From the IMG/VR virus record IMGVR_UViG_3300028805_003982: a stretch of 64,000 nucleotides of DNA, one strand, 5' to 3'. The notes beneath the pieces are model-generated. The model saw only the letters and a list, made by a program, of their open reading frames with translations. It did not search any database and had not been told where the DNA came from. Below, in pieces: positions 502 through 50,417 of the stretch. Position numbers and translations under genes: made by a program. Each line of letters opens with the position of its first letter. Position 1 is the stretch's first letter. The stretch comes from a virus. Its lineage: Duplodnaviria > Caudoviricetes.

Positions 502-547
502 AAACTAGGGTATTACTCCATGTTTACCAACGGTCATATGTTAGAAT
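502..547 (+). promoter_or_regulatory. Conserved box promoter copy 1 (AAAC-tag-GGTA-tt-AC, 22 bp, TGtTAGAAT)
   Basis: One of six equally spaced copies; about 90 bp of near-identity with 11309-11400. Confidence 0.75.
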
Positions 548-583
548 TAGGTCAGGATACGAATCGCAGAAAGGGAAAAAATA

Positions 584-856
584 ATGACTAATAATGAAGA
601 GGCTGTTGAGAGGCTAGAATATATCAAAACACATGATACAGACCCCGAGGATTACGAGGTGTTTGACCTTGCTATCAAAGCGCTTGAAACACAACTGACA
701 TGCGAATGGATATACCACGAAGAGTGGGAAAACGAAGGCGGCTGTGGTTATGAGTGTCCCCGTTGTGGTCGCGCGTATGACTATGATATGAACTTTTGTG
801 GCTACTGTGGTACAAGAATGACGGGTGTGAAGAATGAAAGCGAAGAAGCGTGTTAG
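584..856 (+). CDS. Phage-like small protein with C-terminal Zn ribbon
   Basis: ECPRCG...NFCGYCG. Confidence 0.7.
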   Translation: MTNNEEAVERLEYIKTHDTDPEDYEVFDLAIKALETQLTCEWIYHEEWENEGGCGYECPRCGRAYDYDMNFCGYCGTRMTGVKNESEEAC

Positions 857-1014
857 AGATGGAATGGTGCATATTCCTTTATGTGTGGTAAATTGTGGAA
901 CGATTTGTGAAGAGATGATACCAGGCGGGCATTGTATTTATTCAGAGTTTTGCCCTATTGCAGAGAATAACACAACTTCAAGATTGATAGTTAAGATTAC
1001 AAAGGAGAATTGAT

Positions 1015-1314
1015 GTGCAGATAGTAATTGATATACCTGAAGATAGATACAGACAGATAAAAGACATGCCTAATGCTTTTGGTTCTGATATTTGTAAGGC
1101 AATTAGAAACGGCATACCTTTGCCCAAAGGACACGGAAAATTGGTCGACGAAAAGGAAGCAATGGGTCTTATTGCTGAAGGAAAAAACGGCAAAGCATAT
1201 TTTGGGACAGTAAATAAGGACTGGGAAGTTATAGACTTTCTCAAAACAATACCACCAATCATAGAGGCAGATGAGGAGACAGAGAATGAGCACAGTAGAT
1301 ATTCCGATATATGA
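1015..1314 (+). CDS. Modular phage-like hypothetical, paralog 1 (IVIDIPE / PLPKGHG / PIIEAD)
   Basis: Three conserved blocks shared with 2079, 2603 and 2952. Confidence 0.8.
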   Translation: MQIVIDIPEDRYRQIKDMPNAFGSDICKAIRNGIPLPKGHGKLVDEKEAMGLIAEGKNGKAYFGTVNKDWEVIDFLKTIPPIIEADEETENEHSRYSDI

Positions 1315-1462
1315 GAGACCTATAGATGAGTGGTTAATGGCAGTTATTGAGGAGCTTGAAAGTCGCAAGAGCTATGGCATAGAGTATGCACAAGCTATGG
1401 AAGATGTTATTGCTATCTTAACGGCAAGGTTAAATGCAGATAAGGAGGCAGAGAATGAGTAA
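1286..1462 (+). CDS. Small hypothetical protein
   Basis: ATG after GAGGAG; ends ADKEAENE. Confidence 0.6.
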   Translation: MSTVDIPIYERPIDEWLMAVIEELESRKSYGIEYAQAMEDVIAILTARLNADKEAENE

Positions 1463-1652
1463 GATAAGAGTTACTAATCCTTATTTTGAAAAAGAATATA
1501 AAGTTGTAGAGGGGTTTGGTGATATTGAATACAATCTTCACAACATCAAACAAGGCTTGGGAGAATTTCTTCTTCTCCATACAACAGATGGAGAAACGAT
1601 TACTATAAATCCTTCGAATTATGCAAGTGTCGAGATCGCAGCAGATAAGTGA
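1455..1652 (+). CDS. Small hypothetical protein
   Basis: ATG after AAGGAGG; ends AADK. Confidence 0.65.
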   Translation: MSKIRVTNPYFEKEYKVVEGFGDIEYNLHNIKQGLGEFLLLHTTDGETITINPSNYASVEIAADK

Positions 1653-1663
1653 GGTAGATTGAT

Positions 1664-1891
1664 ATGACATACACAAACGCACAGTACAAGAGAGCATTTG
1701 AAATTGCTTGTGATTTGCTTAATGGCAGTAATCTTTATGGCATAGATACCGATAATTTATTTGCTTTAATTATGCAGGAATACGGTATAGTTTCTACTCT
1801 TGAGTATCAGAAATTCATTTTGGAACATCTTGATAGGTTTAGTGATGATGACGAAATCAGATTAAAAGCCGTTGAGAGATTAGGCTGGTGA
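1664..1891 (+). CDS. Small hypothetical protein
   Basis: GAGGT RBS. Confidence 0.65.
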   Translation: MTYTNAQYKRAFEIACDLLNGSNLYGIDTDNLFALIMQEYGIVSTLEYQKFILEHLDRFSDDDEIRLKAVERLGW

Positions 1892-2078
1892 GGTAGATTG
1901 ATTTGAAGCATAAGAAACCTAAGTGGACAATCAAGCGTATTAAGAACCGCATTATTCATTTAATGCAGAAGCAATATGTTGCTAACCATATTTGGTGTTA
2001 TGGGTGCAAATATTTGCATAATCATACCTGTGAAGAGCTTGACCCCCTTAAAAGTAAATGTAAGTGAGGAGAATTGAT

Positions 2079-2366
2079 ATGCAGATAGTAATTGATATGC
2101 CAGATGACCTGAAAGATAAGATTTGTAATTCAACTGAAGAGTGGGCAGCTCGTTATGTAGCTGGATGGGATATGGAAATTGCAAGGATCGTTAGAAACGG
2201 TACACCACTTCCTAAAGGACATGGAAGATTAAAAGATGTTGATTGGATTGATGATAATTGCGAGGTCCATTATTCGGATAAAGACGGAAGTTGGTGTTAT
2301 GCGTGGAGAGACATTGATAATGCTCAAACAATCATAGAGGCAGATAAGGAGGCAGAGAGTGAGTAA
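2079..2366 (+). CDS. Modular phage-like hypothetical, paralog 2
   Basis: MQIVIDMPD...NGTPLPKGHGRL...TIIEADKE. Confidence 0.8.
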   Translation: MQIVIDMPDDLKDKICNSTEEWAARYVAGWDMEIARIVRNGTPLPKGHGRLKDVDWIDDNCEVHYSDKDGSWCYAWRDIDNAQTIIEADKEAESE

Positions 2367-2589
2367 GTTACGCATAAAGGTCTCCAAAGACAATGCCCCT
2401 TTCATTATCTATAATCATTTATTTGTAAAAGAAGAACGATTCACAATTGATGAATTACAAGCCGAACTTTTAGAGCAATATGGTTTAGATGTGGATAAGA
2501 ATTTCATTAAATCTGAAATCGAGGAATATTTAAATTGGGGGTTAGTAGTGCATAGTTTGGATAAATATAAATCGCGTATGAAAGATTAA
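2359..2589 (+). CDS. Small hypothetical protein, possible winged helix
   Basis: GTG after AAGGAGG, overlapping the upstream stop. Confidence 0.6.
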   Translation: MSKLRIKVSKDNAPFIIYNHLFVKEERFTIDELQAELLEQYGLDVDKNFIKSEIEEYLNWGLVVHSLDKYKSRMKD

Positions 2590-2602
2590 GAGGAGTATTG
2601 AT

Positions 2603-2938
2603 ATGAAGATATTAATTGATGTACCTGAAGAGTATCTTGATAGCGAAGTTATACACATTACTGCGGTCACGGGTGTGAATAACAAGATTACAGACGTTAA
2701 TGTTGAAAGTGCGTATGCAGAGTTTCAAGTTCTTCCTAAAGGGTACGGAGATTTGATTGATAAGTCAAAAATATACAAAGCCATTCCTGCGGAAGAAGAT
2801 AACAGTACCGGTATGGGAATGACGCGTGAAGAGATGGACGCTTATAACGAGGGTATTGATGCTATGTATTCACGCGTTCAAGACGCACAACCAATCATAG
2901 AAGCAGATAAGGAGCATCAATATCCTTACAATCTATAA
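2603..2938 (+). CDS. Modular phage-like hypothetical, paralog 3
   Basis: MKILIDVPE...LPKGYGDLID...PIIEADKEHQYPYNL. Confidence 0.8.
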   Translation: MKILIDVPEEYLDSEVIHITAVTGVNNKITDVNVESAYAEFQVLPKGYGDLIDKSKIYKAIPAEEDNSTGMGMTREEMDAYNEGIDAMYSRVQDAQPIIEADKEHQYPYNL

Positions 2939-3243
2939 GGAGGGACAAGATATGGAGATAGTAATTGATATACCAGAAGGAATGTATGAGGCATATAAAG
3001 GCAGACCGCCGATGTTTGGCGATGAGGGCTTGGATAGTATCTGCCAAGCAATAGCAAACGGCACACCGCTTCCGAAAGGACACGGAAAATTGATTGATGC
3101 TGATGATTTAGACATAACAACAATCACAACAGATGATTATAACGGAAATGAAGTGTTAGAAGTTGTGTTAAAAGAAGACATTGATAATGCACAACCTATC
3201 ATAGAAGCAGATAAGGAGCATCAATATCCTTACGATCTATAAG
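2885..3243 (+). repeat. 55-bp direct repeat (2885-2939 and 3189-3243, 2 mismatches) at the 3' ends of paralogs 3 and 4
   Basis: gcacaaccWatcatagaagcagataaggagcatcaatatccttacRatctataag. Confidence 0.95.
2952..3242 (+). CDS. Modular phage-like hypothetical, paralog 4
   Basis: MEIVIDIPE...NGTPLPKGHGKLIDAD...PIIEADKEHQYPYDL. Confidence 0.8.
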   Translation: MEIVIDIPEGMYEAYKGRPPMFGDEGLDSICQAIANGTPLPKGHGKLIDADDLDITTITTDDYNGNEVLEVVLKEDIDNAQPIIEADKEHQYPYDL

Positions 3244-3255
3244 AAGAGGCAAAAT

Positions 3256-3534
3256 ATGAAGGCAGTGGTTACCGTAGATGTAGATCTGAAACATGCCAGA
3301 ATTGCACTTGGCATTGCAGGATATGACGTGGAACATAAGACGGATCAGGAGATCTTAGAGATGGCCGTTCGTATGAATGACTGCTACGCGGTCAATACGT
3401 TAGAGATAAACACAGAACTTGAGCCTGTCTTCCCTAAAGTCGACAGCCATGCGGAGTATTGGGATAACATTGGTAGTGCTGATATTAGCGGAGCAAAAAT
3501 GGAGAATGGGGGAAAAGATAAACATGAACTCTAA
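3256..3534 (+). CDS. Hypothetical protein
   Basis: GAGG RBS, co-directional. Confidence 0.6.
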   Translation: MKAVVTVDVDLKHARIALGIAGYDVEHKTDQEILEMAVRMNDCYAVNTLEINTELEPVFPKVDSHAEYWDNIGSADISGAKMENGGKDKHEL

Positions 3535-3877
3535 GATCGGATATCTATCCCCTACCGGGGAATTACACGAATGTGCACCATACGATCATCTTTCCCTTGC
3601 AAGAGACATGATCGATGATATGGTTAATGCCGGAATCAACGTCCCTGCCCAAGCCAAGGTAAATACTGTCGAAGCAGAGGGATATCTACTATCTTTAGGG
3701 TATATCGCTATCAGGTCACACGACTGCTATGGTCATATCGGATACTTTGTAGAAGATAACAGCGGTCGAAGGATACATATGACAGACGAACAAAAGAAAT
3801 GGCTGTTGGATAATTACGGTAATTTTGGCGCTGAGAAGCAAAAATGTGTAGATCGATTATTTGATTGGGATATGTAA
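3524..3877 (+). CDS. Hypothetical phage-like protein
   Basis: GYLSPTG...H motif; overlaps the upstream stop. Confidence 0.65.
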   Translation: MNSKIGYLSPTGELHECAPYDHLSLARDMIDDMVNAGINVPAQAKVNTVEAEGYLLSLGYIAIRSHDCYGHIGYFVEDNSGRRIHMTDEQKKWLLDNYGNFGAEKQKCVDRLFDWDM

Positions 3878-3916
3878 TGTCATAAATCTATTTGATGACT
3901 GATAAGGAGAGAATGA

Positions 3917-4273
3917 ATGAACACGCATGAATTGAAGATATTACCGAGATGGTTTGAGGATGTATTGACCGGCAAGAAGAATTTTGAGATCCGCAGAAAT
4001 GACCGAGATTTTAGAGTGGGCGATTATCTCCTGCTTAAGGAATACGAGCCAGCAATTGCGAAGTTTAGTGGCAGAGAGATTATGAAGCGGATTCAGTATA
4101 TCTACGAAGGTGATGGGGCTTACGGTTTGTCGGAAGGGTTCTGTGTTCTCGGATTGGAGGCTTATAAATGTTGCCCAAAGAATTGCAGAGAATGTCCTTA
4201 TAAGACTTTTGATAGTGATAGCAGTCAGGAATTTATCTGTGATTTGTATGGTCATCCTATATATCCTGTATGA
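3917..4273 (+). CDS. DUF3850 / ASCH-PUA-like protein with Cys-rich tail
   Basis: HELKI.P.WF..V..G.K.FEIR.NDRDF.VGD signature. Confidence 0.85.
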   Translation: MNTHELKILPRWFEDVLTGKKNFEIRRNDRDFRVGDYLLLKEYEPAIAKFSGREIMKRIQYIYEGDGAYGLSEGFCVLGLEAYKCCPKNCRECPYKTFDSDSSQEFICDLYGHPIYPV

Positions 4274-4286
4274 AAGGCGGTGCGGA

Positions 4287-4559
4287 ATGAATTTTATTGA
4301 TTTTCTTTCACAAAGATTTGAAACAGAGCTTGAAGGGCCGCTGCAATTTGGTGATGAAGTTATAGATGAATACGGTATCAAAGCCGTAGTGGTTCGAGAT
4401 CCCTATCCGCTCGGTTCTGATAAGGAGCTTTTTACCTTAATCTATTATGGAAGGATTTTGTCTTCGACATGCGTCAGAAATCTTAAAAAGACCGGGAAAA
4501 GTTATGCTAAAGAACTTAATACAATTTTTAACGGATTGAAGGAAGGCGGTGTGGAATGA
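4287..4559 (+). CDS. Hypothetical protein
   Basis: ATG after AAGGCGGTG. Confidence 0.6.
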   Translation: MNFIDFLSQRFETELEGPLQFGDEVIDEYGIKAVVVRDPYPLGSDKELFTLIYYGRILSSTCVRNLKKTGKSYAKELNTIFNGLKEGGVE

Positions 4560-4771
4560 AATGTCCTAAATGCGGTGCTGATATGGTTTGGATGGGTAAT
4601 GTCCAAATCTTGATTAAAGATACAGATAAATACCTTCATCGATTATCCAAGAAAGCATTTCGTAGTAAAGATATTCAATTGTTGGGAGTTGATTGGAGCA
4701 AAGGCGATTTATATTGTCCTAACTATTTACAGTGTGGAAATCATCCAATATTGAAAGGCGATGCGAAATGA
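4556..4771 (+). CDS. Small Zn-finger-like protein
   Basis: MKCPKCG...CPNYLQC; ATGA overlap. Confidence 0.65.
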   Translation: MKCPKCGADMVWMGNVQILIKDTDKYLHRLSKKAFRSKDIQLLGVDWSKGDLYCPNYLQCGNHPILKGDAK

Positions 4772-4941
4772 CTAACGCAGAAAAGTATGAAGAAGTTTTT
4801 GGATTTAAGCCAGCATATGTTTGTCCAACTTGTACTTGTTCAAATTGTCCTATCGGCTTAATTACTTGTCAGATGAATAAGTATGCGTTGATACCAATAG
4901 CGAAGTGGTGGAATGAAGAATATAAAGGTGGTGCAAAATGA
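4768..4941 (+). CDS. Small Cys-rich phage-like protein
   Basis: MTNAEKYEEVFG..CPTCTCSNCP..WWNEEYK; ATGA overlap. Confidence 0.65.
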   Translation: MTNAEKYEEVFGFKPAYVCPTCTCSNCPIGLITCQMNKYALIPIAKWWNEEYKGGAK

Positions 4942-5072
4942 AAGGCGGTGTGGTTGCAAATGCTACATGTTGGGAGTGCAGTTCACGCGGAATGGTTTCT
5001 TGTAAAACAAGTTTAGTCAAGAAAGTTGACTTTTAGTCAAGGAATTAGTCAAGGAAAAAGAGGCAGAGAGAT

Positions 5073-5657
5073 ATGAAACGGAAAGAAACAACGAAACCGT
5101 TGACGGAAATCCTGATACAAGACAGGCTTTCTGATCGCAAATACTATGCCAAAGAAGTTACACTGGATTATGGAACGAATCACGCAAAGCGGATAGATGT
5201 AATGCAATTTGTACCGGCCGGCGTGGTGCACACTTCTGATATTGAAAAGGGTATTTTCATCTGCTATGAAGTCAAGTCCTGCCGAGAGGATGTTTATTCC
5301 GGTAACGGACTTAATTTCTTCGGCGAGAAAAATTATATCGTGACCACGATGGAGACTTATAAAAGGCTCCAGGATGATTATCGAGAAGGAGTTCTTGACA
5401 GGTATATTGAGGAAAATTACCCCGAATCGTCTCCGTGCTATGGTTTCATGGTACCGGTGCCTGCACATCTTGATCTGCGCGACGCGAATGCCGTATATGA
5501 AGAATTCCAAAATCCTACTGCGTTTACGGGACCGGCAAAAGACTGGAAGCTTTGGATGGCAATCCCTTGCAGGGAGCATGGGCGGAGCAGGTCTACCGTG
5601 GAACTTCTGTTCTGTATGCTGCGGAGCAAACATTCTGATACAAATCAGAGCGCTTGA
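5073..5657 (+). CDS. Putative PD-(D/E)xK nuclease-fold protein (MmcB-like)
   Basis: EVTL...RIDVM...CYEVKS..D..SG. Confidence 0.6.
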   Translation: MKRKETTKPLTEILIQDRLSDRKYYAKEVTLDYGTNHAKRIDVMQFVPAGVVHTSDIEKGIFICYEVKSCREDVYSGNGLNFFGEKNYIVTTMETYKRLQDDYREGVLDRYIEENYPESSPCYGFMVPVPAHLDLRDANAVYEEFQNPTAFTGPAKDWKLWMAIPCREHGRSRSTVELLFCMLRSKHSDTNQSA

Positions 5658-5703
5658 TAGGAGGGCGATATGGATTGTCCTTATTATGAAAAGGAGAAGA
5701 AAA

Positions 5704-5946
5704 ATGACACTTGAAGAAAAAATCAAGCTTTGTGAAGAAAAGGCTAAAGAACAAAGGTCTAAAGCGGTAGGCTATTTTAATGGCAGTTATAGTTCACAGA
5801 TAGAGGGTAAAGCTTGTCTTAAATGTGCAGACGAACACGAACAGCTGGCTGCGTGGCTTACGCAATTAAAAAGATTAAAGGAAGCCTATGAATCTGACTA
5901 TCAGATAGATGACTTGATACAGGTTTGTTTAGATATTTGGGGGTGA
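5704..5946 (+). CDS. Hypothetical phage protein
   Basis: MTLEE.I...C..EHEQLA.WL..LK; AAGGAG RBS. Confidence 0.65.
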   Translation: MTLEEKIKLCEEKAKEQRSKAVGYFNGSYSSQIEGKACLKCADEHEQLAAWLTQLKRLKEAYESDYQIDDLIQVCLDIWG

Positions 5947-6229
5947 GGAAGAATGACCTTTTACTGCGAAGATTGCAAATTTATTGACGAGTGTAAACCT
6001 CATAAAGATAATCCACAATCCATTGGTTGTTGTGATTTTGGATTGTTTGATGATGAGGGTTTAATTGAGGATTGGGATATAGAAAGGAGCGATGAAAAAT
6101 GATGGACATCGAAGCTAAAGCAAGGTGGATATGCTGTCCTATGTGCGACAGAGATACTTGCAACAGGAATGCCAACGATTGCGATGTGAAGATATGGCTT
6201 GAAAAACATAAGGAAGAGAGTGATGAATA

Positions 6230-6451
6230 ATGGCGATTACGGTTTTACAATGTTTTGAATATCAACTTGAATGCGATGTTTGTGGTGATTGGGAAGTTTT
6301 GCATACAGGTGATGGCGTAAGGTCGGGCGAATATGTTCACGACATTGAGAGTGCAAGAAGGTGTTGCAATTATCACACTAGTAAGGGTTTAGTTCTTTGT
6401 GACAAGTGTTTTAAGGAAAGAAAGGCGGTGCGGAATGAAGCTGATGATTGA
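6230..6451 (+). CDS. Small Zn-binding protein
   Basis: CDVCG...LCDKC. Confidence 0.6.
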   Translation: MAITVLQCFEYQLECDVCGDWEVLHTGDGVRSGEYVHDIESARRCCNYHTSKGLVLCDKCFKERKAVRNEADD

Positions 6452-6725
6452 TGTAGATGAAAAAGTATATCGCTTTACTAAAGCAAACCCTTCCTGGAAT
6501 GATGGAGTTAATGCAAAGCATATTCTTGATGCGGTCAGAAAAGGCAAGCCGCTTCCGGATATAGACGCATTGAAAAAGGCAATAAATGACGCTTATGAAG
6601 AATATGACGGCTATGACCCACACGACTTGAGTAGATTTGCTGAGCGGGTTGAAGATTTAATCGACAACGCCCTGACAGTAAATGAAGATAGGGATATAGG
6701 AAGGAGTGAGGGAGGATTCAGGTAA
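6435..6725 (+). CDS. Hypothetical, distant member of the IVID/PLP family
   Basis: MKLMIDVDE...AVRKGKPLP. Confidence 0.6.
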   Translation: MKLMIDVDEKVYRFTKANPSWNDGVNAKHILDAVRKGKPLPDIDALKKAINDAYEEYDGYDPHDLSRFAERVEDLIDNALTVNEDRDIGRSEGGFR

Positions 6726-6991
6726 TGAAAATAACAGATGATGATTTTGGAGCCCTTGCTGTATGCGCAATAAGGTATTGTCAGGGTAGAAAAACTTATA
6801 TGCCCGAGTTAGTCCGAGGAATAGTTCGAAAGCATATATCAGAAGTAACCGATAAGGACTTGCAAGTAATGATAAATGATTGCGAGTCTCAAGTAACCAT
6901 GCAACTTTGGGGCGATGAGCTGATTGATAAGCAAGGTTGGCTGGAGTGGAAAGACTTCTTGATAAAAGAGCAGAAAAGGAGAAAAGAATGA
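6725..6991 (+). CDS. Hypothetical phage protein
   Basis: CAIRYCQGR.TYMP motif. Confidence 0.7.
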   Translation: MKITDDDFGALAVCAIRYCQGRKTYMPELVRGIVRKHISEVTDKDLQVMINDCESQVTMQLWGDELIDKQGWLEWKDFLIKEQKRRKE

Positions 6992-7818: not shown

Positions 7819-7831
7819 TCAGGAGGTTCTT

Positions 7832-8218: not shown

Positions 8219-8233
8219 GAAAGGAAATCTGTT

Positions 8234-8728: not shown

Positions 8729-8790
8729 ATGATAAGGAGTTTTCTGCGGGGCTAAGTTCAGAATACCCTAAGTGAATAAAGGAGGCGTTT

Positions 8791-9147: not shown

Positions 9148-9164
9148 ATAAGGAGGATCGTAAT

Positions 9165-10195: not shown

Positions 10196-10293
10196 ACAAA
10201 TGATAACCCCAAAACGCGGGATATCTGCCTATTTACGGTTTATGCTGTAATAATAAAACCAGAATGATCCAAGAGTTTTTCGGAGGAGTATTC

Positions 10294-10722: not shown

Positions 10723-10815
10723 TCTTCTATATTCCGCAAAATGGAAACCCGGACAAAAATTAACAGGTGACAAATTATTTATATTTGTTAAAATTATACA
10801 AACACAAGGCGTGAT

Positions 10816-11108
10816 TTTGGTGTCATTTCAACAAATGAAATTGGTGTCAAATTGGTGTCAAACACCCCGCAAAGGCCCGTATTTAAAGGGCTTTACAAAT
10901 GTTTGAACAAAGTCAACAAATTTGTTCAAAAAATACTTTACAAAATCTTGTGACCCTTATAACTACTGGGTCTGTCGCTACCTAAAAAGACACCATATTT
11001 TTGGTCCGTTTTTTCCTAATGTATCAAATATGCGTTGTTTTTATCAAATTAAGGTGTCTGCCTTGCCCGTTTTGGTGTCAGCAATTTGACACCAATTTGG
11101 TGTCAAAT
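10816..11108. repeat. att-like region with six TTGGTGTCA copies in two clusters and a 24-bp palindrome
   Basis: Direct copies at 10817, 10841, 10852, 11072, 11097; inverted copy at 11087; aaaggccc-N-gggcttt at 10871-10894. Confidence 0.75.
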
Positions 11109-11326
11109 CAAAGAGATTTTTCTGATTTTCGGCTGTCCTATTATAGGTACTGTCTTTTTAGGGGCTTTTGGAAACTCCGCCGAAAACCGAAAACAACTAT
11201 ATGCGTTTCCGGGGATCTTGCCTCAGGTATCGGAGCTTATTATTTAAAATAATATCCTTAACTTTATCGTCGACGGATCAGCTGCTAAAAAAAAATATTT
11301 TTCACAGATTTTGAAAAAAGTTTGCC

Positions 11327-11372
11327 AAACGAGGGTATTACTCCCTGTTTACCAACGGGCATGTGTTAGACT
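11327..11372 (+). promoter_or_regulatory. Conserved box promoter copy 2
   Basis: AAAC-gag-GGTA-tt-AC, 22 bp, TGtTAGACT. Confidence 0.75.
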
Positions 11373-11413
11373 TAGGTCAGGATACAAATACAGAAAGGAC
11401 GGAGAAAATCCAT

Positions 11414-12403
11414 ATGTCGAACTTTAACATTTCGCGTAGGGAGATAACAGAGTATCTGAAGCTGTCTTCTCCCGTATTCGATCTCGCATTTGCTCTTAAC
11501 AAGGGTAATCTCGAAGGCGAATACAAGCAGGATTCAAAGGGTTATTACCACTTTAACCCGAAGGCGATCGACCTGATGGAAGAGTTTTTGGAGGGCTTTG
11601 ATGAGAGAAAGATCACTCTTGATGAAGTATCTTCCGTAATAGGCGCTCCCGCAGATCAGATCTACTACGCATTGTCCGGAGCGGCGCTTGAAAGCCAGTG
11701 TCTTATCACAAACCTGGTTCCTTCATTTAAGAAGTCAGGCAGCTCTTTCGGAACATTCACATTTAAGGGGTGCGATTCAGACGCTCTCTTGAATATCATC
11801 AAGGATCTCCAGAAGAATGAGGATCAGACCTCCGAGGCACCGGAGACATCTGAGACATCAGATCTTCCCGAAGAGATCGGAGATGAAGCACCCGACACAG
11901 CAGAATCCACAAATACTACAGACACTAAAGGAGACAACAACATGAGCGACAACACAGTATTTAACCCCGGCGAACTTTTCGGACTTTCAGAAGTAGCAGC
12001 ACCCGAGCCTGCACCCGCTCCCGTAGAGCAGGCAGCAATGCCCGTAGAAGTAGCGGCACCCGAGCCCACACCTGCACCCGCGCCTACACCCGCGCCTGCT
12101 GAGGCTAAGACGCCCGCAGCTCCCAAGAAGGTCAGGAAGAACAAGTACTCGCTGGATAAGAAGTTCTACACGGAAGCGGCAGATCCCGAGAAGATCGACG
12201 TCAAGGCGGTTCGTAACTTCTTCATCGAAGGCAAGGTGGTCAAGCTCGAAGAGATCGCCGTTATGAGCGACAACGAGATCATCAACCGCTTCGCTAACGA
12301 ATACTACCTCCTCACGACAGAGAAGGGATACGTATTCATCAACAAGGAATGGATCAAGGACAACATCGCCGGAATTACGGACAATGTGTTCCTTGTAAAC
12401 TAA
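11414..12403 (+). CDS. Two-domain hypothetical with acidic and Pro/Ala linker
   Basis: GGAG RBS; PEPAPAP repeats; followed by a terminator. Confidence 0.75.
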   Translation: MSNFNISRREITEYLKLSSPVFDLAFALNKGNLEGEYKQDSKGYYHFNPKAIDLMEEFLEGFDERKITLDEVSSVIGAPADQIYYALSGAALESQCLITNLVPSFKKSGSSFGTFTFKGCDSDALLNIIKDLQKNEDQTSEAPETSETSDLPEEIGDEAPDTAESTNTTDTKGDNNMSDNTVFNPGELFGLSEVAAPEPAPAPVEQAAMPVEVAAPEPTPAPAPTPAPAEAKTPAAPKKVRKNKYSLDKKFYTEAADPEKIDVKAVRNFFIEGKVVKLEEIAVMSDNEIINRFANEYYLLTTEKGYVFINKEWIKDNIAGITDNVFLVN

Positions 12404-12431
12404 GCCATTTTCTCCTCCCTATCCTACGCAA

Positions 12432-12461
12432 GGCCGCGGATCTAACAAATCCGCGGTTTTG
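12432..12461 (+). terminator. Intrinsic terminator
   Basis: ccgcggat-N7-atccgcgg followed by T run. Confidence 0.75.
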
Positions 12462-12541
12462 TTATGTTGTCCGATAGCACAAGAAAACGCTATATGTCCG
12501 TACGGATGGTATAATATAAGCAGTAATTATTTGTGGAGGAT

Positions 12542-13966: not shown

Positions 13967-14014
13967 AACGCTTGCATATAGTACAAAAAGGTTTTGCCTT
14001 TTTGTGAGTGTTGC

Positions 14015-16159: not shown

Positions 16160-16220
16160 AAATAAGAAATTACCTTTTAAGTATGACGTGGGGCTTTTGT
16201 TTTAGATCAGTGTTTACGGT

Positions 16221-16273
16221 GACCAAATAAGACCGAATAAAGACCAAATAATGACTAAATAAGACCAAAATAA
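16221..16273. repeat. Five tandem GACCAAATAA-like units upstream of the helicase
   Basis: gaccaaataa gaccgaataaa gaccaaataat gactaaataa gaccaaaataa. Confidence 0.85.
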
Positions 16274-16548
16274 TCAGAGGATAAAAGGCATATTGTGATC
16301 ACGGCAAAAACGTAAAAATGTATTTGTTAAAATGCTGAAAATAATAGTGATCTTTGGCGCGTTTTTATACACAGTTTTTTAAGTAAAAAATACAATTTCT
16401 CAAAAGCGATGTCATATTAATAGTAGAGATGGTAATCCCACAGGTTTTACACTAACAAGGGTTCTTTCAAACAGGTTGAAAAGCCTAATGTTTAATACGC
16501 TTTCGGGACTTGGAAAGGGGCTGAAAAAATTAATTAAAAAAGTTCCCG

Positions 16549-16594
16549 AAACTGCGGTATAACACACGGTTTAACATGTGGCGTATGCTATACT
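16549..16594 (+). promoter_or_regulatory. Conserved box promoter copy 3
   Basis: AAAC-tgc-GGTA-ta-AC, 22 bp, TGcTATACT. Confidence 0.7.
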
Positions 16595-16627
16595 TCAATT
16601 ACATTAAAAGAAAGGATTTTTCCAAAC

Positions 16628-16984
16628 ATGAAGACTTTTACTTTAACACTTTTGGCGCTTGTTTCGATCGCGTCTTCCGTTCTCATCGGAGCTGATCTCG
16701 GAACCCAGGACAACACTGCTTCCAAGCCCGTTGTTTGTCAGGTAACTGACACGGCGTGTCTCACCTCATGCGGGGACATTCTCGTTCAGGATGGAAGTGC
16801 AAATTACAGACATAAGATCTTGTCTGTAGAGAAGGTGAATATCGGTGCCGCAGCAGACTACGTTAAGTTTGAGTGCGCTGATGATTTCGTCCTTTTCGTA
16901 GGTGAGGAGACTACCGTTTCACTTGACGGATCAAATGTCTGCGTTGACCTTGCAGAGGTAGACCGCGGAATAATCAGTAAGTGA
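16628..16984 (+). CDS. Putative secreted protein
   Basis: N-terminal signal peptide. Confidence 0.7.
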   Translation: MKTFTLTLLALVSIASSVLIGADLGTQDNTASKPVVCQVTDTACLTSCGDILVQDGSANYRHKILSVEKVNIGAAADYVKFECADDFVLFVGEETTVSLDGSNVCVDLAEVDRGIISK

Positions 16985-17048
16985 TTTTGATCTTTAGTAA
17001 GTAACAACAAAGCTGTACTATCGGCTATACGGGTAGAAAGGATAAAAG

Positions 17049-17456
17049 ATGAAAGAGAACGCCAACTCTGATCCGGGGCAGATGAAAATGACGAAGAAAG
17101 AGATTATTGAACAATTAGAGTGGGTAAAGAAAAGAATAAGTACTATTACTTATTCACCCGAATCCTTTGAAGCTCTTAACCTTGCCGAGAAAGCAGTGTC
17201 TGCATTGGAAAATCAAGCTTCAGTCGACACCTTCATCAATGAGTTCAGAGAGCGTTTGAAGAGGTACGGACAAAGTCACGGTAACAATCGAACTTTAGAA
17301 GACGTGTTCCAGATACTAAATGCGACCAAACAGTCTTACGAAAAAGGTGAGCTGTCTCCTAAGCCTCAGCACAATCCCTGCAACGATATGGCAGATATCA
17401 TGGCAGATCCTGAACTCTACAAGCATTGGTTGGAAATTACCGGGAGGTCATTATAA
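17049..17456 (+). CDS. Hypothetical protein
   Basis: AAGGA RBS. Confidence 0.65.
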   Translation: MKENANSDPGQMKMTKKEIIEQLEWVKKRISTITYSPESFEALNLAEKAVSALENQASVDTFINEFRERLKRYGQSHGNNRTLEDVFQILNATKQSYEKGELSPKPQHNPCNDMADIMADPELYKHWLEITGRSL

Positions 17457-17526
17457 GTAACTCCGGAAGTGGTAACGAAATTGCTCGAATGCGAGCAACC
17501 TGATTTGTGAAAGAGAGGTATTTGAT

Positions 17527-17751
17527 GTGGCAGTTTACGTTTTAAGAGACAGAGACAGCAAGGCATGTGACATCACGGCTATCCTTTTCACCGGGAAGAG
17601 CGCTGATGACATAGACAAGGTTGTTTGTGACGTTAAGAACATGCATCCGGATGATTACACTTTTGACGATGTTAAGAGTGAACTCCAGAAGATGGACCCG
17701 ACCATCCGCATCCTGGAGGCATCATCGGATTACAAGGAGATCTACTGGTAG
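17527..17751 (+). CDS. Hypothetical protein
   Basis: GAGGT RBS, GTG start. Confidence 0.6.
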   Translation: MAVYVLRDRDSKACDITAILFTGKSADDIDKVVCDVKNMHPDDYTFDDVKSELQKMDPTIRILEASSDYKEIYW

Positions 17752-17942
17752 CCCCTGACACCAGGGCTATATCGGGCTCATTAACAGCAGGAGGGAAATA
17801 TGGATAACGAAGTAATGACAGCAGACATCGAGATCGTTTCTCGTTCGGTAATATCAGACAAGGACGCTATGGCTTTTCTTTTGTCAGAGAGCCTTTGCGG
17901 AGATATGGAAGCAGAGCCTTTTGGCTGATCGGAGGTTTAGAT

Positions 17943-18188
17943 ATGGGGGATATTAAGGTATATTACATTGACTTTTACAGGATGATCTGCGACCTGATCC
18001 CCTTGAGGTCTGTTAAGATCACCGCGTCTTCGAAGGAGGACGCTCACCGGAAGGCTGAAAAGCTTGCTTTAGCCTGGGGTTATAACCCCGAGAAAATGGT
18101 GATACAAAGCACCGATACCCCGGTAAGTTATTATGATTCCAGACCCCGCATTCGTGAAGGAGACATAGAGTTTATATCCGGCAGTTAA
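17943..18188 (+). CDS. Hypothetical protein
   Basis: GGAGG RBS. Confidence 0.6.
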   Translation: MGDIKVYYIDFYRMICDLIPLRSVKITASSKEDAHRKAEKLALAWGYNPEKMVIQSTDTPVSYYDSRPRIREGDIEFISGS

Positions 18189-18209
18189 ATGTGAAATAAA
18201 AAAAGCCTG

Positions 18210-18255
18210 AAACGGCGGTATAACGGGACTTAGCGGAAGCCCCGTGTGTTATAAT
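18210..18255 (+). promoter_or_regulatory. Conserved box promoter copy 4
   Basis: AAAC-ggc-GGTA-ta-AC, 22 bp, TGtTATAAT, then gtaggataacaaca leader. Confidence 0.8.
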
Positions 18256-18306
18256 ATACTCGTAGGATAACAACATAAAACTACTGTTTTTGAGAGGAGC
18301 TTTCTT

Positions 18307-18951
18307 ATGAGTAATGTCAAGGTCATCGAGAAGATCAAGAAACTGTTTGAACTGTCCAAGAACAACCCGTCTGAGGAAGAGGCTCGCAGTGCTGCGTTGA
18401 AAGCCCAGGAGCTTCTTGTTCAGCATAATATAGACATCGCTGAGGTTGAAGATTGCAGCCTGGATAAGATCGAGAAGATCGGAGGGGTCGAGGTTGATCT
18501 GGAAGCAAAGAAGTGGAAGTATGAACTGGCTATCATCGTTTCAAAGAATTCCCGCTGCAAGCATTTCTATCACGGCAAGGATCAGCTCGTTTTCTACGGA
18601 CACGAGACAGATGCGACCGTAGCAGCAGAGACCTTTAAGTACCTCTTTAATGCCGGTAACAGGCTCGGCAACAAACTTGCCCGCGAAGCCCGTAAGGAAT
18701 ACGGATATGCAGATAATGTATATAACTCCTGCGTTGTCGGATTCTGTCAGGGCATAAGACAGGCTCTTGCAGAACAGAGCAGCGCTCTTATGGTAGTTGT
18801 ACCTGAAGATGTTAAGGATGGATTTGAGGATCTTTCCAAGAATTTCAAGAATATGCGTCTGAGCTGTGTTAAGGCTTATCACAGGGGTGCTTTTGAGGCA
18901 GGTAAGCAGCAGGGTTATGACGCTATGAGACGTAACCGGATATGCGCATAA
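18307..18951 (+). CDS. DUF2786-domain protein
   Basis: IEKIKKLFELS.NNPSEEEA.SAALKAQELL..HNI; FYG. Confidence 0.85.
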   Translation: MSNVKVIEKIKKLFELSKNNPSEEEARSAALKAQELLVQHNIDIAEVEDCSLDKIEKIGGVEVDLEAKKWKYELAIIVSKNSRCKHFYHGKDQLVFYGHETDATVAAETFKYLFNAGNRLGNKLAREARKEYGYADNVYNSCVVGFCQGIRQALAEQSSALMVVVPEDVKDGFEDLSKNFKNMRLSCVKAYHRGAFEAGKQQGYDAMRRNRICA

Positions 18952-18966
18952 AGGAGACTAAATAAT

Positions 18967-19545
18967 ATGGCTAACATCTGCGAATTTGAACTTACTGTCA
19001 ACGGTCTTGAAGAAGATGTTCTTCGCGTTGTAAATATACTTGAAGGCGAAGATCCCGAATACCGCGTATCTCGTGCCTCTGTTATCGACAGTTTTGAATC
19101 GGATGACGGGTTTATTGTGTACGGCGAGTGTGATTGGTCTGTACACAGCAGTATGATGACGGAGAACAACCATATCTGTGATGACGGAAAGAGGTTTATC
19201 ACGCTGGATAAGATGGCTGTTATGTTTAATGTCTCGTTTTTGGTCGACTCCAGAGAGCCCGGTTTGTGCTTTTCCGAATGCGGTGTCATTAATAAAGATG
19301 ACACAAGGATCGAATGTCTTTGTTACAGAGACTATGTTAGGGACTTCGAAGATGATTATGATCCTTCCCGGGGAAGTTTTTATGATTATGTCATCGGAGA
19401 GTTTCTGAAGTTTTTCAAGAAGCATTCGGAGGATTACGATACAAAGCAGTGTTTGACAAAAGAAGACATCGAGGTGTTGTGCGATGACGATGATCACATA
19501 ACCCTTCGTGTTAAGCCTTCTATCACGCCGGAGGTGGGTTTATGA
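18967..19545 (+). CDS. Hypothetical, possible YubB-like ferredoxin fold
   Basis: MAN.C...L.V.G, C.WS, EPG..F. Confidence 0.55.
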   Translation: MANICEFELTVNGLEEDVLRVVNILEGEDPEYRVSRASVIDSFESDDGFIVYGECDWSVHSSMMTENNHICDDGKRFITLDKMAVMFNVSFLVDSREPGLCFSECGVINKDDTRIECLCYRDYVRDFEDDYDPSRGSFYDYVIGEFLKFFKKHSEDYDTKQCLTKEDIEVLCDDDDHITLRVKPSITPEVGL

Positions 19546-19586
19546 AAGCAGCTCCCCCGTGACATGTCCAAAGTAACAACTAAAGC
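19542..19586 (+). pseudogene. Internally deleted remnant of the 19958..20380 gene
   Basis: atgaaagcagc (its start) fused to ctcccccgtgacatgtccaaagtaa (its end, compare 20333-20357). Confidence 0.7.
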
Positions 19587-19655
19587 AACAACAATTGTCA
19601 ACGCCTTGAGTTGTTGTCTAAACTCAAAATATACATCAAAGAAAGGAAACACATT

Positions 19656-19961
19656 ATGACAAACATCAAATTACTCACATTTTCATGGCCTGATTCAGAT
19701 TATGACGGTGAATCATTAGTTTATTCCGTCGCTATCCAGACACAGCTCGATGACGAAGCCATCAGTAAATTACTCGATGCTGTCGAAGATGCTATGGCAA
19801 ATAATGAGATCGACGAAGAAGACGGCTGCACGACTTGGGACGAACAGATCTATTCCGTTCTCGTAGGCCTGCAGGATGAATATCCGTTCAAGATCATCGA
19901 AACAAGAGACTTCTACAGAGAAGTTCCCGGAACAAACATCTCGCCGGATGTGGGTTTATGA
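19656..19961 (+). CDS. Acidic hypothetical protein
   Basis: AAGGA RBS; ends SPDVGL, like TPEVGL of 18967. Confidence 0.7.
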   Translation: MTNIKLLTFSWPDSDYDGESLVYSVAIQTQLDDEAISKLLDAVEDAMANNEIDEEDGCTTWDEQIYSVLVGLQDEYPFKIIETRDFYREVPGTNISPDVGL

Positions 19962-20380
19962 AAGCTGCATTAAAGCTGCTGCCTGTTTACAAGGATTACG
20001 GCAGGAAGAACCGCAGATCAATACAGAAATGCAGATACAGCGATGAGGTTGTTAATCTCATCGCTAAACATCTTGCCAAGGAGCCTTCCCTTCAGGATTG
20101 TACCATTGAGTGCTACGGTCCTTTCGGGCTGGATGCCGAGTGCTCTGTTTCCGTTCGGAGGAACAGCATTAATGAAGAGCCTGATATTGTAGGTTTTTTA
20201 ACGGTTACGGACAGAAGAGATGCTCAAGATAATCTTGTCTGGGTTTACAAGGATTATAGTAAACCTTCGACCGGGGCGTATCCGAAGGGTTTCATAGGTG
20301 ATCTGAACGGGTTTAACCGTCCTGTCTGTAATCTCCCCCGCGACATGTCCGAAGTAATGAGGCTCGTTTTAAGCGTGTAG
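19958..20380 (+). CDS. Hypothetical protein
   Basis: GPFGL and IGDLNGFN motifs; ATGA overlap. Confidence 0.7.
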   Translation: MKAALKLLPVYKDYGRKNRRSIQKCRYSDEVVNLIAKHLAKEPSLQDCTIECYGPFGLDAECSVSVRRNSINEEPDIVGFLTVTDRRDAQDNLVWVYKDYSKPSTGAYPKGFIGDLNGFNRPVCNLPRDMSEVMRLVLSV

Positions 20381-20484
20381 GAGTCTTTTATTTGCTGTCT
20401 GTTCTATCTTGATGATCGGAGGTTATCTTATATGAATAACATCTTAAATAGAATAACATCTTAAATAGAATAAGAGGTTTTATT

Positions 20485-20871
20485 ATGTTTAATTCTGATC
20501 CTATGAACAGTGCTGCGGCAACCAAGCCCGACGGCAGGGACAATCCTTCTTATCCTGCCCTGATCCAGTGTATCGAGTCAGCAGCTAAGGAAGGGTTTCT
20601 ACAAAGAGATCCGGAGTCTTACGGCAGGATCTTGGTCTACAGAGAAAATATGGATCAGTCCCGATACGGTATTTCGGAGGGGTGGTTCTCCCAGAGCATC
20701 CTGGATGTAGCCGGAGAGATCAAGACTGATCTTCTTTTCGGCAGCGGTGAGCAGTTTCAGGCTTTTATAAAGGCTCTGGAGGATAAAGACATCAGCGCTT
20801 GTTTTAATGATAACGGTAATTTTGAAGGGTTTGAAAGAATGAGATCCCTTGATTTGGAAAGAGAACTTTGA
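20485..20871 (+). CDS. Hypothetical protein
   Basis: GAGG RBS; ends RSLDLEREL. Confidence 0.7.
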   Translation: MFNSDPMNSAAATKPDGRDNPSYPALIQCIESAAKEGFLQRDPESYGRILVYRENMDQSRYGISEGWFSQSILDVAGEIKTDLLFGSGEQFQAFIKALEDKDISACFNDNGNFEGFERMRSLDLEREL

Positions 20872-20883
20872 GGTGCGTTATAT

Positions 20884-21195
20884 ATGAGCAGATCAGAATA
20901 TAACCTTAAGGGACTGAGAAACACATTAATAAAGTACGGCACAACCGGAGACCTTTGTGTTGAAGGTACACATTGGAAGATCGCAGCAGGCGGTTACGAT
21001 CTTCTCTGGGAACTTTATTATAGAGACAGACAGAAAGGCGAGATCCCGGTCATAGGATGCTTTAGGAGTGATGACCCTATGTGTTCCGGCGAGCTGGAGA
21101 ACTATTGTCTTTCTCAGGACGACTTTAACAGGATAGCAGACATTATAATCGACGAATACCCGGTAAAGATACAGGAAAGAAGTCTGGATCTTTAA
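20884..21195 (+). CDS. Hypothetical protein
   Basis: GAGGTG RBS; ends ERSLDL. Confidence 0.7.
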   Translation: MSRSEYNLKGLRNTLIKYGTTGDLCVEGTHWKIAAGGYDLLWELYYRDRQKGEIPVIGCFRSDDPMCSGELENYCLSQDDFNRIADIIIDEYPVKIQERSLDL

Positions 21196-21293
21196 GTCGT
21201 AAGCCGGGTCGTAAGTTTAGTCGTAAGAAGGATCGTTCGGGGCGCATTCTTAGTGTGTTCCGAACATTATTTTTTTTGTAAAAACAATCCCTG

Positions 21294-21339
21294 AAACATC
21301 GGTAAAACAAGGCTTTGCGGGTATCCCGTTTGGTATAAT
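21294..21339 (+). promoter_or_regulatory. Conserved box promoter copy 5
   Basis: AAAC-atc-GGTA-aa-AC, 22 bp, TGgTATAAT; near-identical to copy 6. Confidence 0.85.
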
Positions 21340-21391
21340 AACCTTGTAGGATAACAACAAAGAATGCGTTTTGTTTTAGGAGATTTTTTTT

Positions 21392-21814
21392 ATGAGTATG
21401 AAGTCTTGGACAGAGGAAGGTTTCGGTTTCCCGCTTTTCGTTAATAACAATTTTGATAAGGTAAAGGCATTTGTTGCCGAGCGTCTCAGCCCCAGTGAGA
21501 GGACAGACGTTATGGCTTGTGAAGACGATTTTGAATTAAGCGAATATATTGCAGATAATACCGGCAGCACTTGTACCGCAGAGTTTATTGCAGAGTGCTT
21601 TCGTGAAACCTTGAAGGTCAACTCGCTCTACGGTTTTACGTTTGACGGCGACACTGACCAGGACGAGATGATCGGGTTTAGGCCTACTTATTCTTGGAGC
21701 GATGACGCTGACAAGCTTTCCTATGAAGAAGCTCTTAAGATATTAAAGGACCTGGCTGACAAGCTGGGCATCAACGCCACTCCTGATTACTTTACGGCTG
21801 AGTATTGGGGGTGA
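21392..21814 (+). CDS. Hypothetical acidic protein
   Basis: AGGAG RBS. Confidence 0.7.
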   Translation: MSMKSWTEEGFGFPLFVNNNFDKVKAFVAERLSPSERTDVMACEDDFELSEYIADNTGSTCTAEFIAECFRETLKVNSLYGFTFDGDTDQDEMIGFRPTYSWSDDADKLSYEEALKILKDLADKLGINATPDYFTAEYWG

Positions 21815-21818
21815 TGAT

Positions 21819-22004
21819 ATGGCACAGGTCTATGTAGGTTGTTTTAACGAAGCTGATCTGAACGAAGGGCGCGACAAAAGCCTTGTCGCCCGGAAGATGG
21901 CTGAGACAGGTCTTAACTACACTAACACCAAGATAGTCTACAAGAACGGCGTTCCGGCAGGACTTAAGATCTGGGTGTGTGACAAGGACACTTTTACAAT
22001 CTGA
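21819..22004 (+). CDS. Small hypothetical protein
   Basis: GGGGTG RBS. Confidence 0.6.
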   Translation: MAQVYVGCFNEADLNEGRDKSLVARKMAETGLNYTNTKIVYKNGVPAGLKIWVCDKDTFTI

Positions 22005-22037
22005 TGCATTAAGAATAATTATCAAGGAGGTTTTTAT

Positions 22038-22388
22038 ATGGTAGTTTCAAGTTATTATTACGGTAACCCGGGTAAGCTTTCAGGGATCGTTATAGATACC
22101 AATAAGAGAGTTTATGCCACCTTTAACGGGATTGATAAGAGTATCTGGTGTGACAGGCTGAGGACGGTTCCGGGAAGTGAGCCTCTGGCTTCGTTTAAGG
22201 ATGATTTCCACATTCCCGGAGATATGCTGTTCAGGACTAGGAAAAAATCAGATCTCCACGATATTTTGAGAGTCGTGGATGAGATCGGGTATGAAAGAGA
22301 GCCTGATAAGATTCTTGATTTCGGGTGCTATCAGGCTCCTGAGACAGACCTACAGTATATCAATCAGCATCCCGGAAGAGATCTTTGA
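22038..22388 (+). CDS. Hypothetical protein
   Basis: AAGGAGG RBS. Confidence 0.7.
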   Translation: MVVSSYYYGNPGKLSGIVIDTNKRVYATFNGIDKSIWCDRLRTVPGSEPLASFKDDFHIPGDMLFRTRKKSDLHDILRVVDEIGYEREPDKILDFGCYQAPETDLQYINQHPGRDL

Positions 22389-22519
22389 TCCTCCGGGCCG
22401 CTTTGGCGGTGCTATCCTATGCAAACGCGGTAATAATAAGAGAACAGTTTGATATGTCTTAAAGAACATAAAGAGCATACTGATATGTCATAAAGAGCAT
22501 ATTTATCGGAGGTATTGTT

Positions 22520-22957
22520 ATGAAAAAGAATTATCCCGGAGAGAGCGCAGCGGATTTCTTTGACGCTGTCAAACAGATAATGGCTGAAGCCAGGGCAAAG
22601 TATCCCGAATACAAAGATTCCAACCTGGATACGAACGGTGAGATATTCTATATGAACGGCAATGACTCAACCAAGTTTGACTGGGAGGTGAACGACCGCC
22701 TCTGTGAGTTTATGATCTTCCACAAGGACGAAATGGGCTTTATCAAGGTTTGCGCCGATACCAACGGAAACATTGACGGCTATATCTATAAGGCCGGCAG
22801 CATGTCTCCTGATGAGCGTTTTACCTGCAGCATTTCAAAAGATGCAGTCTACGATGCCTATGAATGGATATCAGAGCACGCGGATGGCCTCGATCTCTGG
22901 GATAAGTCATTGGACGAACTTAAGGTTCCGTCCAACTCCAGGGGTCTTAGCATCTGA
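22520..22957 (+). CDS. Hypothetical protein
   Basis: GGAGG RBS. Confidence 0.7.
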   Translation: MKKNYPGESAADFFDAVKQIMAEARAKYPEYKDSNLDTNGEIFYMNGNDSTKFDWEVNDRLCEFMIFHKDEMGFIKVCADTNGNIDGYIYKAGSMSPDERFTCSISKDAVYDAYEWISEHADGLDLWDKSLDELKVPSNSRGLSI

Positions 22958-22986
22958 CGATCCGGCAGTTAATGGAATAAAGGCTT

Positions 22987-23018
22987 CCCGGGATACTTAA
23001 TTCCCGGGTTTTCTTTTG
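22987..23018 (+). terminator. Intrinsic terminator
   Basis: cccggga-N8-tcccggg followed by T run. Confidence 0.75.
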
Positions 23019-23035
23019 AACGTAAAAAGTCCCTG

Positions 23036-23081
23036 AAACATCGGTAAAACAAGGCTTTGCGAGGTGCCAGTCTGGTATAAT
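23036..23081 (+). promoter_or_regulatory. Conserved box promoter copy 6
   Basis: AAAC-atc-GGTA-aa-AC, 22 bp, TGgTATAAT. Confidence 0.85.
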
Positions 23082-50413: not shown

Positions 50414-50417
50414 CGTT

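Follow-up and report, generated by a model that had tools for sequence, protein, structure and literature searches.

What controls a set of genes on a mobile element when the same two-part sequence stands in front of several of its transcription units? The question is raised by a stretch of 64,000 nucleotides from the Caudoviricetes record IMGVR_UViG_3300028805_003982, hereafter the window, which belongs to an element of roughly 235 kb. An upstream box, AAAC-N3-GGTA-N2-AC, is present in these 64 kb exactly six times and only on the + strand (at 502, 11327, 16549, 18210, 21294 and 23036), against a mean of 0.04 expected by chance for this 15-mer pattern in dinucleotide-preserving shuffles. In an ungapped alignment, exactly 22 bp separate the box from the TG of an extended -10 in 6/6 copies. 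Taken at the level of sequence, this organization argues that all six are genuine promoters and form a single private, element-specific and position-locked class that is under selection. The six copies, which belong to three sequence subfamilies named A to C, are:

490-547, + strand: promoter 1 (subfamily A), with A-tract 490-494, box 502-516, TG 539-540 and -10 hexamer TAGAAT 542-547; predicted start at ~554
11315-11372, + strand: promoter 2 (subfamily A), with box 11327-11341 and -10 hexamer TAGACT 11367-11372
16537-16594, + strand: promoter 3 (subfamily B), with box 16549-16563 and -10 hexamer TATACT 16589-16594
18198-18255, + strand: promoter 4 (subfamily C), with box 18210-18224 and -10 hexamer TATAAT 18250-18255
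21282-21339, + strand: promoter 5 (subfamily C), with box 21294-21308 and -10 hexamer TATAAT 21334-21339
23024-23081, + strand: promoter 6 (subfamily C), with box 23036-23050 and -10 hexamer TATAAT 23076-23081

Positions are numbered with the final T of the -10 hexamer set as -7. The conserved module extends over 58 bp, from an A-tract (-64..-60) through the -10, and is wider than the box and core described in an earlier note on this DNA. Its 22 invariant positions are AAA-A (-64..-60), AAAC (-52..-49), GGTA (-45..-42), AC (-39/-38), a T at -31 and T-N-TG-N-TA-N-A-N-T (-17..-7). The upstream box is asymmetric. GGTA is directly followed by an (A/T)(A/T)AC word (-41..-38), and A-rich words near -62, -51 and -40 lie one helical turn (11 bp) apart, at places where the carboxyl-terminal domain of RNA polymerase's alpha subunit (alpha-CTD) can bind. 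The downstream part is an extended -10 in all six copies (TG at -15/-14, one base before TAnnnT) with an additional invariant T at -17; T-N-TG is the "-16 region" usual in Gram-positive sigma-A promoters. The hexamers, one base after the TG, are TATAAT in three copies and TAGAAT, TAGACT and TATACT in one copy each, the strong core TRTGnTATAAT being found in three copies. No copy matches TTGACA at more than 2 of 6 bases (range 0-2) at 16-18 bp from the hexamer, which agrees with the -35 independence of extended -10 promoters. A weak TT(T/G)-type word is found 13-14 bp from the hexamer and is too close to it to be a normal -35. None of the six sites appears in sigma-70 consensus scans of the window. 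The search for the 58-bp module with up to three mismatches found no site in the window beyond the six, and box matches with one mismatch are at chance level (3 versus 3.4 expected); the six copies thus form a discrete class without decayed members in the window.

The subfamilies (A, 502 and 11327; B, 16549; C, 18210, 21294 and 23036) allow the effects of duplication and of constraint to be told apart. Within families the modules are 0.69-0.90 identical and the similarity continues into the leader, which identifies those copies as recent duplicates. Between A and C, the subfamilies farthest apart, the identity is 0.43-0.52. The 36 non-invariant module positions are there only 11-14% identical and the flanks 17-31%, with zero indels in 58 bp. 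Functional constraint follows from the fact that only the 22 clustered positions and their spacing are kept between these two families, and the comparison points to selection, and not recent duplication alone, as what holds box and spacing in place. The earlier note had reported the six boxes, the 22-bp spacing to TGn and a -10, the lack of TTGACA at the -35 position and the three subfamilies, and had proposed that motif and spacing were selected rather than simply duplicated; the present figures bear it out on each of these points.

The module is specific to the element. The strict module was searched in one genome per species (185,579 species, 596 Gb) and has two single matches, both in normal TTGAT(A/T)-17-TATA(A/C)T promoters that carry the 15-mer at the UP-element position by chance. 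It has no match in viral contigs. A looser composite (box, 22 bp, TGnTAnnnT) has 80 unrelated single matches in viral contigs and, in 401 Clostridia-class genomes, four single matches (one of them in the seed genome) versus three for the reversed control, with at most one match per genome. Six copies in 23 kb, compared with the chance level in genomes, identify the module as a private feature of the element. Note that this comparison uses host-type genomes and not the true host chromosome; in such genomes the motif is at chance level, equal commonness at host promoters being what the earlier note had named as refuting its proposal. Searches for relatives of the element brought up no further copy of the module. 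Viral contigs hold no close relative of the PcfJ-like protein encoded behind promoter 6, of the element sigma factor or of the promoter 2 product, and 20 kb of the window, compared with phages by megablast, gave no match. Among 5.8 billion clusters just one relative of the promoter 2 product is found, at 97% identity; it lies on a 17.9-kb contig, one of two short related contigs of which the other has 19.3 kb. A search of metagenome contigs for the DUF2786 protein encoded behind promoter 4 retrieved six loci, the best with 65% identity; on this best locus there is no such promoter before the DUF2786 gene and no box anywhere.

How might such a promoter work? The class is most likely made of activator-dependent extended -10 promoters used by a host-type polymerase together with a factor bound near -45. 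The core T-N-TG-N-TA-N-A-N-T (-17..-7), a -35-independent form typical of Firmicute sigma-A, would most likely be read by the host holoenzyme. The AAAAA (-64..-60)/AAAC/GGTA/(A/T)(A/T)AC block, at its invariant distance, would lie on one face of the helix and is most likely where a sequence-specific, element-encoded factor docks. The docked factor would contact RNA polymerase through alpha-CTD and/or sigma region 4 and activate all six units together. The presence of one shared two-part promoter at six units indicates that probably one DNA-binding factor switches these units on together. The more precise version, in which a host-type sigma-A reads the extended -10 while the element factor docks at ~-45 in the geometry of Spx/alpha-CTD promoters, is held to be somewhat better than an even bet. 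The motif, its spacing, its element specificity and the selection on it are shown by the sequence comparisons; activation, reading by a host sigma and the identity of the factor are inferred. Several points weigh against this reading. Its support comes from sequence, and the conservation from three sequence families within one element. The strong TRTGnTATAAT core might fire without an activator. Neither co-occurrence, operator similarity nor a known specificity connects any candidate factor with the box. The structure models of the candidates were computed from single sequences, their confidence is middling (mean predicted local distance difference test, pLDDT, 62-64) and the Z scores of 7-8.5 are borderline. 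Finally, the window covers 64 kb of roughly 235 kb, such that the true reader may lie outside it.

The arrangement has counterparts in mobile elements of other bacteria. In AcaCD (IncA/C), SetCD (SXT/R391), phage Mu Mor and C, and P2 Ogr regulons, one element factor acts on many operons through a private box at a fixed position, with a weak or absent -35. These master activators belong to Gram-negative systems, are FlhDC-like, Mor/C or zinc-finger proteins and bind mostly dyad sites. A fixed private box before many operons is common to them and to the element, in which the box is asymmetric; FlhD/FlhC-like, Mor/C and Ogr-type activator families were not detected among the scanned window open reading frames (ORFs). 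A master-regulator regulon, the analogy drawn in the earlier note, is the right kind of model for a class that is private, position-locked and selected. The geometry is closest to that of Spx-activated promoters, in which AGCA at -45..-42 and an A-rich segment at -41..-36 are read by Spx bound to alpha-CTD (PMC2801614; PMC12242773). Spx promoters of Bacillus subtilis (trxA, trxB, nfrA, yraA) likewise combine a sigma-A core with a tetranucleotide, essential in their case, at -45..-42, a place occupied here by GGTA followed by (A/T)(A/T)AC. They differ in the word itself (GGTA and not AGCA), in the box, which here reaches farther upstream with AAAC at -52 and an A-tract at -62, and in the cores, which are here extended -10 elements without a -35. 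About 70 ORFs of the window were scanned and gave no Pfam match to the ArsC/Spx family. By analogy, the likeness to Spx would be one of mechanism and not of family membership.

Three products of the window were considered as putative readers of the box, in addition to the element sigma factor discussed below:

11414-12403, + strand: candidate reader 1, 329 amino acids, behind promoter 2; predicted MerR-type winged helix-turn-helix over residues 1-66
44753-45169, + strand: candidate reader 2, 138 amino acids; residues ~48-120 predicted to have the fold of sigma-70 region 4 (-35-binding), with no other sigma regions
45913-46356, + strand: candidate reader 3, 147 amino acids; weak match to the phage transcription-regulator family phrog_36 (E 2.6e-5)

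In the first candidate, residues 1-66 precede a second, similar beta-alpha-alpha-wing unit, which is joined through an acidic/proline-rich linker to a C-terminal domain. The single-sequence AlphaFold model of its first 129 residues has a mean pLDDT of 62, with values of 75-85 over residues 20-60, and features two successive beta-alpha-alpha-wing units of which the second is poorly modelled. The best structural match of residues 1-66 is the RacA DNA-binding domain (Z 8.5, root mean square deviation 2.3, 63 aligned residues), with further matches to NmlR (7.9), the ParA2 N-terminus (7.7), pSK1 Par (7.3) and GlnR/TnrA (~7). All top matches are MerR-type DNA-binding domains, at 10-12% identity, and this fold is found in centromere-binding proteins too. 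BLASTP detects no sequence repeat between the two N-terminal halves, and structural neighbours in the Atlas are limited to weak HTH_17-type matches (template modelling score, TM, <=0.26). TraN of Enterococcus plasmid pIP501 has two MerR-type winged helices per chain, which occupy two adjacent major grooves at asymmetric half-sites (PMC6158623), while BldC reads direct repeats head to tail (PMC5859096). The predicted MerR-type fold is common to TraN, BldC, RacA and the 11414-12403 product, the match being at the fold level only (Z <=8.5, 10-12% identity); TraN differs in being a repressor that acts near the origin of transfer. Tandem winged helices, if modelled correctly, would suit (A/T)(A/T)AC words 11 bp apart, a fit that is suggestive only.

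The model of the second candidate reaches pLDDT 70-87 over residues ~48-120 and TM 0.72-0.79 to region 4 of SigL and SigD (SigL 0.75, SigD4 0.76-0.79). Every one of its top matches is a sigma region 4 domain, and the protein has no match in Pfam, PHROG, NCBIfam or PDB sequences. The third candidate has nothing in Pfam, NCBIfam or PDB sequences. These two proteins correspond to the region-4/ArpU-like readers put forward in the earlier note, a suggestion that stands as far as their families are concerned (the predicted region 4 fold and the phage regulator match), while nothing links either of them to the box. In the free region-4-like regulators known from phages and transposons of Firmicutes (ArpU/RinA type, Tn916 Orf7) and in sigma appropriation by T4 MotA/AsiA, a small protein supplies or replaces the upstream contact and the host core enzyme reads private promoters, a role compatible with the sigma-4 fold predicted for 44753-45169. 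The MotA box lies at -30 and ArpU/RinA targets late packaging operons, in contrast to the present box, which is centred at ~-45 before non-structural genes. On the models available, the MerR-type winged-helix protein (11414-12403) and the free sigma-4-fold protein (44753-45169) are better but unproven candidates for the reader. A more specific proposal is that one of these small element proteins, through its sigma-4 domain or its tandem winged helix, docks one helical turn upstream of the normal -35 and replaces the sigma-4/-35 contact, the host polymerase thereby reading a private code; it is held to be unlikely.

The element also codes for a sigma factor of its own, which the earlier note had named as a possible reader:

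29646-30662, + strand: element-encoded divergent primary-like sigma factor with regions 2, 3 and a weak region 4; unlikely reader of the class

Its true start is at 29646, since the ATG at 29577 lies within its own -10. Pfam detects regions 2 and 3 clearly and region 4 at threshold, which together cover regions 2-4. The protein is far below the RpoD cut-offs (180 versus 572 bits) and ~35% identical to RpoD/SigA. It has one relative at 47% identity, those in plasmids reaching only about 33%, and the contig on record for it measures 234,910 bp. Alignment with six RpoD-type proteins (E. coli numbering) reveals changes in each segment that reads a primary promoter: WWIRQAITR is replaced by YWIKTSITR (Q437T), RIPVHMVET by HIPESEEQT (H455S, E458Q) and, in the region 4.2 recognition helix, VTRERIRQIE by LKSNQIRTLK (R584S, E585N, Q589T). 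The residues of primary sigma factors for TG (H455, E458), for -12 (Q437) and for the -35 (R584, E585, Q589) are accordingly S, Q, T, S, N and T. The sigma gene itself is preceded by an ordinary promoter, TTGAAA-16-TATAAT (29551-29578). The loss of the residues that read TG and the -12 T, while both are invariant in the six promoters, makes this sigma an unlikely reader, and it is the least likely among the named candidates. All three promoter-reading sites being changed and the closest relative being only 47% identical, it probably reads a non-TG, non-TTGACA type of promoter and probably serves another promoter class of the element.

The divergent switch region at 29231-29600, which holds the sigma promoter, has a repeat, ATCGAAATTTT, at 29558-29568 in the spacer of the sigma promoter; it is found inverted at 29240-29250 and as a one-mismatch copy at 29513-29523. 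These repeats, which are unlike the box, are likely operators of the adjacent XRE protein.

Other explanations of the box have to be weighed against an activator bound near -45. The box could be the operator of a repressor that silences the units until induction or entry into a new cell, the core firing alone. The cores are strong, as their TRTGnTATAAT sequence in three copies indicates, and -35-independent, and the genes of the units, for acidic small proteins, DUF2786 and PcfJ-like proteins, with ArdC nearby, resemble the early "establishment" set of conjugative elements, whose expression has to start in cells still free of element proteins. A site at -52..-38 is, however, clear of the extended -10 core; its strictly invariant spacing across diverged spacers points to direct contact with the polymerase, and the likely XRE operators at the sigma switch do not resemble it. 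Repression is considered unlikely. A direct reading by the element sigma, which would replace host sigma-A and use the box as a displaced "-35", is doubtful: the sigma is complete, its changed region 4.2 helix must prefer an upstream element other than TTGACA, and its gene lies at the switch beside the XRE repressor and integrase, where a master regulator is expected, but H455, E458 and Q437 are lost in it (S, Q, T) although TG and the -12 T are invariant in all six promoters. Moreover, sigma regions 2 and 4 reach over only ~17 bp, far less than the 29 bp that separate GGTA, and the 25 bp that separate the box end, from the hexamer.

A promoter without any dedicated factor is held to be quite improbable. 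The upstream block would then be a curved, UP-element-like docking region for alpha-CTD (A-tracts at ~-62, -51 and -40) or the site of a host factor, a reading that fits the three A-rich words 11 bp apart, where alpha-CTD binds, and the two chance genome matches in which the 15-mer occupies the UP-element position of ordinary promoters. The invariant C (-49), GGTA (-45..-42) and C (-38) are foreign to UP elements or curvature, and a widespread host regulon is countered by the lack of enrichment of the composite motif in the 401 Clostridia-class or the 185,579 species genomes. Less credible still is a promoter cassette spread by duplication and recombination, its units sharing no regulation. 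It would account for copies that are 69-90% identical within subfamilies, with similarity reaching into the leader; across subfamilies all but the 22 clustered positions are at or below random identity and no indel is found in 58 bp. The symmetric dimer raised as an alternative in the earlier note relied on the pairing of AAAC with a GTTT 16 bp later in copies 1-3. This AAAC-N16-GTTT dyad does hold in those copies and only there, and its axis is half a bp off that of the inner GT-N3-AC dyad; its failure in 3/6 copies and the axis offset leave a palindrome binder a weak proposal that is not favoured.

Four further promoter types were considered and rejected. Readers of the extracytoplasmic function (ECF) sigma type (GAAC/GAAAC, 16-17 bp, CGT) would find GAAAC in four copies and nothing conserved 16-17 bp downstream, and a sigma-54-type reading was rejected on the alignment of the six copies. 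Single-strand (Frpo-type) promoters are excluded by DNA folds of the six 101-nt regions, which are no better than those of shuffles (z -1.41 to +1.51). The T4 middle-promoter type has a box centred at -30 that replaces the -35, whereas the box here spans -52..-38.

All six sites lie in a short intergenic gap with a + strand gene and its ribosome binding site (RBS) directly downstream, and the six units together hold about 35 genes. Promoter 1 heads a zinc-ribbon gene (584-856) and a roughly 10-kb array of small genes. Promoter 2 heads the single-gene unit 11414-12403, closed by a terminator at 12428-12462. Promoter 3, divergent from a uvrD-type helicase gene, heads 16628-16984 and 17049-17456, while the unit behind promoter 4 opens with the DUF2786/DUF7168 gene (18307-18951) and continues as far as 21195. 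Promoter 5 heads 21392-22957 and promoter 6 the PcfJ-like gene, which ends at 24528. Terminator hairpins are found directly before promoters 5 (21235-21265) and 6 (22987-23008), and promoters 1 and 4 begin a few bases from the stop codon of the preceding gene. The listed ORF starts of two genes fall inside the promoters and were moved, by position and RBS, from 11363 to 11414 and from 23101 to 23131 (probable). Family matches in the six units are zinc-ribbon, DUF3850/ASCH, thymidylate synthase (thyA), DUF2786/DUF7168 and PcfJ-like. The remaining proteins of the units (584-22957) are mostly small and strongly acidic (e.g., 22 D/E versus 7 K/R), and many of these small acidic proteins end in a polar residue followed by Leu.

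In the leaders of subfamily C (18256-18290, 21340-21375 and 23082-23115) the -10 is closely followed by a common word, GTAGGATAACAACA, and after it a short AACA...TGTT hairpin precedes the RBS. A similar place is taken by AGGATAC in the leaders of subfamily A. The leader word and hairpin could be a second control site or a stabiliser of the mRNA 5' end. Between the uvrD start and promoter 3 (16221-16274) a GACCAAATAA-like unit of 11 bp is repeated ~4.7 times in tandem, in the manner of iterons or of a row of sites for a regulator. A good canonical promoter, GTGACA-16-TAAAAT with TG, lies a short way upstream of promoter 2 (10767-11100) and points into a ~600-nt stretch without a convincing ORF and with a hairpin at 11072-11095; its transcript may be a small RNA or a leader.

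The element is mobile, giant and uncultured, comes from a gut or rumen Firmicute and has the gene content of a large element of conjugative or phage-like type. Outside the six units, the - strand of the window codes for an AAA ATPase, a tyrosine integrase and an XRE repressor, and further genes code for the sigma factor, topoisomerase III and a SNF2 helicase; no Rfam family and no tRNA gene was found in the window. A block at 49895-55085 codes for an Mrr-type nuclease (49895-50413), a DUF3991/Toprim protein (50633-51820), a winged-helix HTH_39 protein (51813-52346) and an ArdC protein with a zincin peptidase domain (54024-55085), a set typical of the establishment regions of conjugative elements. 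Two HipA-like kinase genes (36015-37235 and 61684-62775), the second of which adjoins a small XRE-type helix-turn-helix gene (61144-61512), suggest toxin-antitoxin pairs.

The finding is so far that of a descriptive promoter class, similar private classes being known in kind. As a kind of control, private regulons under a master regulator are known from mobile elements; what is new is the box, the geometry it has in a Firmicute element and the possible readers. Large uncultured mobile elements from gut and rumen Firmicutes have hardly been studied, and for most of their genes no function is known. The promoter class groups about 35 such genes, mostly coding small, acidic, leucine-tailed proteins beside anti-restriction-type genes, into one probably co-regulated set, and the 58-bp module with its 22 fixed positions is a direct handle for finding the regulator. 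A reader that turned out to be a free sigma-4 domain or a tandem winged-helix adaptor would be a Gram-positive counterpart to the Gram-negative master activators. If a small element protein does dock upstream of the -35 position, a private promoter code together with the element's own sigma would give a conjugative element a phage-like, multi-tier transcription programme.

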